A stretch of DNA of 64,000 bases from a virus. The stretch lies in UHGV virus genome UHGV-0371537, one strand, 5' to 3'. Below the pieces are notes generated by a model. That model ran no database searches. It saw only the letters and a list, made by a program, of their open reading frames with translations, and had not been told where the DNA came from. Positions 62,967 through 63,272 of this stretch are shown here, piece by piece; the stretch's first letter is position 1, and each line of letters begins with the position of its first letter. Made by a program: the position numbers and the translations under genes.

Positions 62967-63272
62967 ATGAAAACATTTTTGGATTTCCTGAACGAAGGCG
63001 CTTTGAAGGGTGATCTTCAGAAAGTCAAGGACGCCACCATCGAGTGGCTAGAAGACCAAGATGTGCGACTGAAGAAGTCGGACGTTCAGAACGGCGTATT
63101 CGGTGACTTCTTCCGCATCACGATTGACGGTGAATTCGAATACACCTACAACGGCAAAGAAATCCGAGTGATGGACGTCAAGAAAGACAAAGACGTCGCC
63201 ACCAAAGCCGCGTCTTCTCGTGAAGCCCAGGGTGAACTGGCCAAGCTGATGAAGAAGTACAGCAAGGTCTAA
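62967..63272 (+). CDS. small protein with capsid-targeting-sequence-like N-terminus (putative internal virion protein)
   Basis: 101 aa; N-terminus MKTFLDFLNE parallels T4 internal-protein CTS (MKTYQEFIAE) and the N-terminus of the protein at 25360-25824. Confidence 0.45.
   Translation: MKTFLDFLNEGALKGDLQKVKDATIEWLEDQDVRLKKSDVQNGVFGDFFRITIDGEFEYTYNGKEIRVMDVKKDKDVATKAASSREAQGELAKLMKKYSKV

Follow-up and report, generated by a model that had tools for sequence, protein, structure and literature searches.

A 101-residue protein with a candidate capsid-targeting N-terminus encoded in a ViI-like phage between its genes for the tail sheath and the tail tube

The whole stretch of DNA analysed here, 64,000 nucleotides (nt) of UHGV virus genome UHGV-0371537 (hereafter the window), carries between its tail sheath and tail tube genes a gene for a protein of 101 amino acids (aa) that begins with MKTFLDFLNE. 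Does this start mark the protein as one to be packaged in the phage's head, and if so, what would such a protein be doing at this locus? Our results point, with a probability of roughly 0.6, to an accessory internal head protein that bears a capsid targeting sequence (CTS) of the kind known from phage T4, is made late, docks on the prohead core, is cut after Glu10 and is injected. This reading is carried by the agreement of the N-terminus with the T4 CTS, by similarly tagged proteins in the virions of a related phage, and by the occurrence of the same tag on many other proteins of uncultured T4-type viruses.

A first-pass annotation, made from the letters of the window and a list of its open reading frames (ORFs), had placed a small protein at this position, and the ORF itself, a Shine-Dalgarno-like site, the homologs and the codon-level comparison (omega, the ratio of nonsynonymous to synonymous divergence) all agree with it. 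The features of the gene are as follows.

62967..63272, + strand: the 101-aa gene, with an ATG start and the stop codon within these coordinates (ORF list, homologs, omega)
62959..62963, + strand: Shine-Dalgarno-like GGTGA, 3 nt before the ATG (direct sequence reading)
62967..62996, + strand: codons 1-10, MKTFLDFLNE, the CTS-like tag, ending in LNE before a glycine (alignment, comparison with the T4 CTS)
62997..63269, + strand: predicted mature domain after Glu10, which would start GALKGDLQK (AGLKGDLQK in Magnus), modelled with AlphaFold2 (AF2) as a helix (residues 17-30) followed by a sheet of four to five strands (40-81) and by a helix at the C-terminus (85-98)

The 101-codon ORF reads MKTFLDFLNEGALKGD...KKYSKV, and the intact N-terminus of the 11.6-kDa precursor is MKTFLDFLNEGALK. 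Full-length homologs with 74-78% aa identity were found by tblastn in Klebsiella phage Magnus, Escherichia phages LHE287 and vB_EcoM-ZQ1, Salmonella phage SKML-39 and Yersinia phage CAU_YEP3, and further homologs lie on Logan contigs, while a word-indexed search of 5.8 billion proteins gave just 4 close clusters. Codon-level comparison within the family gave a pairwise nonsynonymous divergence (dN) of about 0.15, saturated synonymous sites and omega below 0.1; for Magnus and LHE287, the closest informative pair, omega was 0.12. The interval 62967-63272 is a real gene under strong purifying selection, and the minus-strand ORFs that overlap it are therefore shadows. Pfam returned only a sub-threshold match of the protein to the Plk4 polo-box (E = 0.028), and PHROGs gave nothing usable.

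The N-terminus had been said to match both that of a PARP-like protein of the same phage and those of T4 internal proteins. The PARP-like protein is the product of the ART-PolyVal gene.

25360..25824, - strand: ART-PolyVal ADP-ribosyltransferase, 154 aa, starting MKTFLEYLKE (PF18760, E = 2e-10)

Among the 2149 ORFs of the window (start to stop, at least 40 aa), this gene and the 101-aa gene are the only two that match M[KR][TS][FYW]xx[FYW][LIVM]xE, and the shared start is not a chance one, our estimate of the chance expectation being about 0.003. In JA15 and pertopsoe, the homolog of the ART-PolyVal enzyme bears the annotation of a structural protein. The tag codons of the two genes differ in DNA, so that the likeness lies, and is selected, at the protein level; a DNA-level repeat common to the two genes was ruled out on the same ground.

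The T4 capsid targeting sequence is MKTYQEFIAE. Genetic work with amber suppressors by Mullaney and Black assigned targeting mainly to residues 4 and 7 and processing to residues 8 and 10, and an Asp at position 10 stops cleavage and leaves targeting (PMC9026906). MKTFLDFLNE agrees with the T4 sequence at M1, K2, T3, the aromatic residues 4 and 7, the aliphatic residue 8 and E10. In our alignment of the 101-aa family (8 members), every copy has F4, L8 and E10, and either F or Y at position 7, so that the four residues critical in T4 are conserved throughout and the earlier comparison with the T4 CTS is well supported; positions 5, 6 and 9 vary freely. LNE at residues 8-10 is the sole [LI]xE site of the window protein, and residues 4-11 were modelled as a helix (AF2). 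The SKML-39 copy reads MRTFSKFLAE and continues with RALSE, a second L-x-E.

Evidence on where such tagged proteins end up comes from the related Dickeya phage LIMEstone1 (HE600015), of whose 152-kb genome 150 kb were examined and whose annotation records the virion proteins confirmed by mass spectrometry (MS), in this case electrospray ionization tandem mass spectrometry (ESI-MS/MS). Its tagged coding sequences, four in number and unrelated to one another, are the following.

ORF173, homolog of the window ART enzyme: MKTFLQYLQE; in virions, 1 peptide (ESI-MS/MS)
ORF080: MKPFIQYFNE; in virions, 2 peptides (ESI-MS/MS)
ORF082: MSKPSFLQFMQE; in virions, 4 peptides (ESI-MS/MS)
ORF167, 61 aa: MMKSFSDYLNE; not among the MS-detected virion proteins

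Three of the four tagged coding sequences were thus present in purified virions (hypergeometric P = 0.024, against 39 detected of 201 coding sequences). In ORF173, the stretch immediately after the Glu10 of the tag is SEHPVFGNLLLYHGSNCEFDEFDFK. The ART enzyme, with its homolog detected in LIMEstone1 virions, shows that Ackermannviridae use the tag for a plausible injected effector. The three detected proteins resemble the 101-aa protein in belonging to the same phage subfamily and in the tag F-x-x-[FY]-[LFM]-x-E; at 17-20 kDa they are small, and their genes have late promoters. Their mature domains bear no relation to that of the 101-aa protein, whose gene is rare while theirs are conserved throughout the family. 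ORF080 and ORF082 lie in a cluster of MS-confirmed 'unknown structural proteins' (ORF078-ORF085, record 58136-62407), and this cluster, which lies outside the window, may be the Ackermannviridae counterpart of a T4 internal-protein locus. The LIMEstone1 paper does not comment on the N-termini of the tagged proteins, and no description of the N-termini of ORF080, ORF082 and ORF173 as targeting signals was found in the literature searched.

We also scanned IMG/VR with a degenerate DNA pattern for MKTF[LF]x[FY][LF]xE, which gave at least 120 loci. Of the 120 matches listed, 110 are true ORF starts (ORF length at least 45 aa, a stop in frame no more than 30 codons upstream), and the tag heads at least 83 distinct proteins in at least 32 unrelated families among them. 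TAAATA occurs within 45 nt upstream of 40% of the listed tagged starts, compared with 2.8% of random 45-nt windows, and the listed starts often stand 5-12 nt behind TATAAATA or CTAAATA. T4-type core genes (gp41, UvsX, gp43, gp44/62, gp17, gp18, gp20, gp21, gp23 and UvsW among them) flank 81 of the 120 listed loci. A further 25 ORFs in these loci, an unbiased set that the scan pattern had not selected, start with M[KR][TSPQN][FYW]xx[FYW][LIVMF]; their residue 10 is Glu in 21 cases, and one of them reads MKTYREFIAE, nearly the T4 sequence. Tagged genes also cluster, with up to three in a 10-kb locus (L027, L033, L057 and L073 have three each). The cargo among the listed matches includes adenylate kinase, cytidylyltransferase-like proteins, zeta-toxin-like kinases and DUF6267; within the listed loci L007-L126, adenylate kinase is found in L038, a zeta-toxin-like protein in L008 and DUF6267 in L116 and L047.

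The start is very common in uncultured T4-type viruses. The decapeptide is thus a label of modular kind, borne at the N-terminus by late proteins of T4-type viruses and forming a continuum with the T4 CTS. Absence of the motif from other proteins, which the first-pass annotation had named among the outcomes that would speak against it, is clearly not what the data show: the motif is found on the ART-PolyVal enzyme, on LIMEstone1 coding sequences and on many IMG/VR families.

How did the gene come to stand where it does? The source phage is a ViI-like myovirus of the family Ackermannviridae, near Agtrevirus and Limestonevirus, and its sheath and tube genes have about 91% nt identity to those of Enterobacter phage EspM4VN and Dickeya phage XF4. 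The locus contains the following features besides the gene.

61027..62925, + strand: tail sheath gene (gp18 type), upstream neighbour of the 101-aa gene (Pfam Phage_sheath_1C, Gp18_domIII_N, Phage_sheath_1)
62934..62949, + strand: GC-rich hairpin GCCCCCGAAAGGGGGC with a weak T tract (terminator scan, alignment with the EspM4VN empty site)
63292..63297, + strand: TAATTA, right border of the cassette, a one-base variant where EspM4VN has the tube late promoter core TAAATA
63331..63864, + strand: tail tube gene (gp19 type), downstream neighbour of the 101-aa gene (annotated as tail tube in all relatives)

Alignment of the intergenic regions showed that the 101-aa gene is an insertion of about 330 bp relative to the empty sheath/tube site of EspM4VN. 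The hairpin at 62934-62949 is the terminator or attenuator of the sheath gene and forms the left border of the cassette. On the right, relatives have about 90-92% identity to the window from 63292 up to the tube ATG; the tube late promoter sequence of EspM4VN is CTAAATAGAATTG and its window counterpart CTAATTAGAATTG. The window thus has, along with the insertion, a change of one base in the promoter of the tube gene (63292-63297), and tube expression in the window may rely on read-through from the sheath promoter.

Comparison of the sheath/tube site across about 280 relatives showed that it is empty in EspM4VN, Ag3 and P46FS4 and is occupied in most other relatives by a GIY-YIG or Hef-like homing endonuclease. 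In Magnus a GIY-YIG gene comes next after the 101-aa gene, and in LHE287 a small hypothetical ORF (118 aa, positions 3436-3792 of locus L003) and then the tube gene; the site evidently collects successive insertions. In SKML-39 and CAU_YEP3 the gene is found at another locus, directly after the major capsid gene, a site that holds a Hef-like endonuclease in LIMEstone1. The gene is known from about five sequenced relatives, at two sites otherwise occupied by homing endonucleases. Its position had been called unusual, and it is true that T4 has no gene there; however, the sheath/tube gap is a recurrent insertion spot in Ackermannviridae, and with the SKML-39 and CAU_YEP3 copies sitting after the capsid gene, the position is a weak argument for an internal protein.

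The cassette is also associated with hairpins. In SKML-39, the hairpin CCCCGCTTCGGCGGGG, which is the terminator of the capsid gene in LIMEstone1, stands on both sides of the 101-aa gene; in Magnus and LHE287 it stands behind the gene at the sheath/tube locus, and the window copy has no downstream hairpin of this sequence. With its varying sites and its bracketing by terminators and promoters, the gene behaves as a mobile cassette, rare in the family, that comes to lie in terminator/promoter gaps beside highly expressed late genes, and the hairpin is a possible recombination handle for cassette shuffling. Elsewhere in the window the same hairpin occurs at 43986-44001 and 44281-44296, 295 bp apart, between two tailspike genes; its positions outside the window are L002 3916 and 4327, L001 3308, L003 (the LHE287 locus) 3309, and LIMEstone1 near 96,940.

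As for expression, we took the consensus of the annotated LIMEstone1 late promoters, TAAATA, as the late promoter core of the family, and a motif scan of the window placed it as follows.

60979..60984, + strand: TAAATA late-promoter core before the sheath gene, the sole TAAATA in 60000-64000 (motif scan)
25856-25851, - strand: TAAATA late-promoter core of the ART-PolyVal gene (motif scan)

The ART gene has such a promoter in both the window phage and LIMEstone1. The 101-aa gene has none of its own, and a promoter scan showed no sigma-70 promoter near it. With the only TAAATA at 60979, the gene is likely to be on the sheath-to-tube transcript; from this context we consider that it is very probably carried on that late message by read-through of the hairpin, whose T tract is poor, and late timing of its expression is plausible on this reasoning. 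In Magnus, CTAAATAT overlaps the sheath stop codon upstream of the 101-aa gene copy, and the SKML-39 copy has a TATAAT-like element upstream in place of TAAATA. The T4 octamer TATAAATA was considered as the late motif of the window and set aside as not relevant here, the family core being TAAATA. A further observation concerns the late promoters themselves: many in LIMEstone1 read TAAATACCCC...GGGGTATTT (42015, 54277, 92918, 121728, 123292 and 135156), as does the window at 25856-25825, so that an inverted repeat is formed, with the promoter core and the first transcribed bases as one arm and a second arm that stops immediately ahead of the start codon. Late mRNAs, that of the tagged ART enzyme among them, are thus predicted to carry a conserved stem-loop in the 5' leader.

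The machinery that a capsid tag would need is encoded in relatives. The order sheath, 101-aa gene, tube, portal and, further on, Peptidase_S77 was found in two Logan contigs; in one of them (L128), where the tube-gene homolog matches PF23849/PF06841, it runs on from the portal into a core-protein gene, itself of 101 aa, and the Peptidase_S77 gene. The family has three such components, encoded in LIMEstone1 by ORF139-141: a protease of gp21 type, the gp22 scaffold and a prohead core protein. For the window phage, whose analysed stretch stops at the tube gene, the gp21-type protease and the scaffolding core follow from synteny with these relatives. Upstream of the sheath gene, the large terminase gene (58722-60974, + strand) encodes 750 aa, of which the Terminase_6N domain starts only at residue 283; the insert opens with CVKGDTLV, closes with SHNT and looks like an intein, and the Magnus ortholog is annotated as an intein-containing precursor, while no Pfam intein domain was found in the window terminase at E <= 1e-5.

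The predicted mature part of the 101-aa protein comprises 91 aa (10.3 kDa, pI about 8.1, 38% charged residues), and its AF2 model has a mean pLDDT (per-residue confidence) of 74 and a pTM (overall fold confidence) of 0.66. Family searches (Pfam, PHROGs) gave no sequence similarity of this domain to T4 IPI, IPII or IPIII, and no informative relatives of it were found. An exhaustive profile search of 1.84 billion representatives returned, besides the family itself, giant repeat proteins (P0005 and P0007-P0012) of bacterial surface type, which also bear Listeria-Bacteroides-type and cadherin-like repeats. Residues 24-74 resemble a unit of about 67 aa (of the type YTITWLNDD..EYG..FTYTFTGW) that is present in up to 12 copies in proteins of up to 5542 aa. 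The summed hmmsearch E over the 12 repeats of P0005 is 6e-23, and single repeats gave E of about 1e-4 in BLASTP at 24-33% identity; hhalign of residues 24-74 against the repeat gave a probability of only 37%, and AF2 models residues 17-30 as helix, not strand. The resemblance could be remote homology or a common beta-strand pattern, and we treat it as an unproven lead from sequence.

We propose the following course of events. That the coding gene is conserved, and that its cassette was inserted with the sheath terminator on one side and the tube promoter on the other, is shown by the comparison of relatives. Transcription would then occur late, within the sheath-to-tube message from the TAAATA at 60979, as the context suggests. 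The amphipathic MKTFLDFLNE would act as a CTS whose aromatic residues 4 and 7 dock the precursor on the prohead scaffolding core, a step suggested by the conservation of the motif and by the tagged virion proteins of the relative. The gp21-type prohead protease (Peptidase_S77) would cut after Leu8-Asn9-Glu10, and the product, a 91-aa protein of 10 kDa, would remain with the DNA inside the head. As the analogy with T4 IPI* and Alt suggests, it would be ejected into the host with the DNA and act before phage gene expression. Its most plausible role may be that of a binding inhibitor of a host defence or of another host factor, which is suggested by the small compact helix/sheet/helix fold predicted for it, its patchy distribution and its mobility; inhibition of a host defence, proposed by analogy with IPI*, would also fit the rarity and mobility of the gene.

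Several points weigh against packaging and injection of the 101-aa protein. Its gene has no TAAATA of its own in the window scan and is separated from the sheath gene by the hairpin at 62934-62949. The AF2 model is of moderate confidence and based on 5 sequences; no T4 internal protein, IPI* included, is among the fold matches listed for it, and the mature part, with its pI of 8.1, is not strongly basic, unlike T4 IPII and IPIII. In LIMEstone1, the smallest tagged protein, ORF167, went undetected by MS, so that the tag is no guarantee of detectable packaging; the detected ORF080, ORF082 and ORF173 proteins may belong to the head or to the tail, and ORF173 was detected by a single peptide. In the part of the Sajous1 peptide table that was searched for signs of cleavage, no tagged sequence occurred. 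Some of the tagged IMG/VR cargo consists of housekeeping-type enzymes (adenylate kinase, cytidylyltransferase-like), whose packaging is no obvious expectation, leaving room for another role of the tag. Finally, whereas the gene, its conserved tag, the modular use of the tag and the occurrence of other tagged proteins in virions of a relative are shown, packaging, cleavage, ejection and function of the 101-aa protein itself are inferred.

The 101-aa protein might instead stay in the cytoplasm of the infected cell as an ordinary, unpackaged accessory protein (a 'moron') and act there, for example, in late regulation, against host defence or in superinfection exclusion, with a CTS likeness due to shared leader ancestry, to selection on translation initiation (AAA ACN at codons 2-3) or to some other role of the helix. 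Such a protein would sit well with a gene that has a terminator upstream and no late promoter of its own, with the TATAAT-like element rather than TAAATA of the SKML-39 copy, with the absence of tagged ORF167 from the detected virion proteins, and with adenylate kinase and cytidylyltransferase-like enzymes among the IMG/VR cargo. However, initiation effects cannot account for the retention of aromatic residues 4 and 7, aliphatic residue 8 and Glu10, nor for 84% Glu at position 10 in the 25 ORFs that the scan pattern had not selected; moreover, LIMEstone1 virions contain three of the four tagged proteins, and the tag is strongly tied to late promoters and T4-type genomes. We consider this explanation fairly unlikely. 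More doubtful still is that the tag does target the prohead core and the protein is an assembly-phase scaffold accessory or decoy, degraded or expelled at maturation rather than injected. Most T4 core proteins are indeed cleaved and leave the head, but those that are destroyed carry several cleavage sites, whereas internal proteins cut once are retained (PMC9026906). The 101-aa protein has one [LI]xE site only, at the end of the tag, and its gene can be dispensed with, since more than 95% of the family lack it, which is a poor fit to a role in assembly.

The insertion site itself suggests another origin for the ORF, as the remnant or passenger of a homing endonuclease or as a tail-assembly factor specific to the sheath/tube junction, since the sheath/tube and post-capsid sites are both hot spots of homing endonucleases and a GIY-YIG gene stands directly downstream in Magnus. 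No nuclease or DNA-binding family was detected in the protein (Pfam at E <= 10, PHROGs at E <= 1), the full-length ORF is under purifying selection in six lineages, and the window, LHE287 and the Logan contigs carry the gene without a recognisable endonuclease. An endonuclease fragment was rejected on the missing motif and the purifying selection, and a tail component on the post-capsid locus of the SKML-39 and CAU_YEP3 copies and on the absence of the gene from most relatives; we regard this origin as highly improbable. Arrival of the gene as a homing passenger is nevertheless compatible with an injected head protein, since it tells how the gene arrived and not what the protein does.

The T4 internal proteins to which the 101-aa protein is thereby compared have masses of about 8, 10 and 20 kDa according to published descriptions. 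Those of T-even phages are diverse, with only the CTS conserved, and have a sporadic, mobile distribution (PMC9026906). The 101-aa protein shares with them the M-K-T start, the aromatic residues 4 and 7, the aliphatic residue 8 and a Glu10 of the gp21 cleavage type, as well as its small size (10 kDa in the predicted mature form) and a dispensable, patchy and mobile gene, and it belongs to a phage family with a T4-type gp20/21/22/23 head-assembly module. In addition, its predicted sheet between terminal helices may recall the layout of IPI*, published as a beta-sheet flanked by terminal helices. It differs in that its gene lies inside the tail block and not in an internal-protein cluster, has no promoter of its own and encodes a product that is not strongly basic, and in that the mature domain has no sequence or fold similarity to T4 internal proteins. 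The phage family and the DNA modification are also different; with another modification in Ackermannviridae, a target like that of IPI* (GmrSD, on DNA with glucosylated hydroxymethylcytosine) is not expected.

T4 Alt, an ADP-ribosyltransferase that is packaged in the head and injected, is an analogue of the window ART-PolyVal enzyme, which is likewise an ADP-ribosyltransferase, begins with a propeptide that ends in Glu and has a late promoter. Alt differs in belonging to the R-S-E clade and having a 7-residue propeptide, the window enzyme being of the ART-PolyVal (H-Y-[EDQ]) type (PMC5512222). Alt differs from the 101-aa protein in that the latter has no enzymatic signature. Some earlier mention of CTS-like ORFs in other relatives of T4 may exist. 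No CTS linked to ViI-like phages and no MKTFL-type tag was found in the literature searched, the coverage of which was incomplete. The hairpin-bracketed gene of SKML-39 has a likeness to the PeSL-type cassettes of T4-like phages, which are flanked by promoters and terminators (PMC4122927); no early promoter element was identified at the 101-aa cassette, and we take the likeness as a lead only.

The delivery system is known from T4, and the new part is the addition of one cargo family, a modest advance; the general tag, which can be mined, is a more interesting by-product than the 101-aa gene. We tentatively put forward, at less than even odds, the wider claim that M-K-T-[FY]-x-x-[FY]-[LIF]-x-E is a capsid address label across the T4 superfamily (T-evens, Ackermannviridae and uncultured T4-type myoviruses) and that the 101-aa protein is a new mobile injected inhibitor of host defence, relevant to phages with hypermodified thymidine DNA. 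If this is true, the label is readable from sequence, and a scan of N-termini would yield a catalogue of the proteins delivered with phage DNA. From the listed IMG/VR matches, such a catalogue would contain ADP-ribosyltransferases, adenylate kinases, cytidylyltransferase-like proteins, zeta-toxin-like kinases, DUF6267 and dozens of small unknowns. Injected proteins act ahead of phage gene expression and are therefore prime candidates for anti-defence functions, as with T4 IPI* against GmrSD and Alt against the host RNA polymerase. If the tag works in Ackermannviridae as it does in T4, its ten residues could also be used to load foreign proteins into these phages, as has been done in T4, and a simple scan for the N-terminal motif could supply annotations for many late proteins now called 'hypothetical' in genomes and metagenomes of T4 type.

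For the family itself, if the tag works as it does in T4, Ackermannviridae, which are widely used in biocontrol and therapy, have unrecognised effectors that are delivered from the head. The set of these effectors would consist of the ART enzyme, proteins of the ORF080 and ORF082 types and rare cassettes such as the one described here, and it may influence host range.

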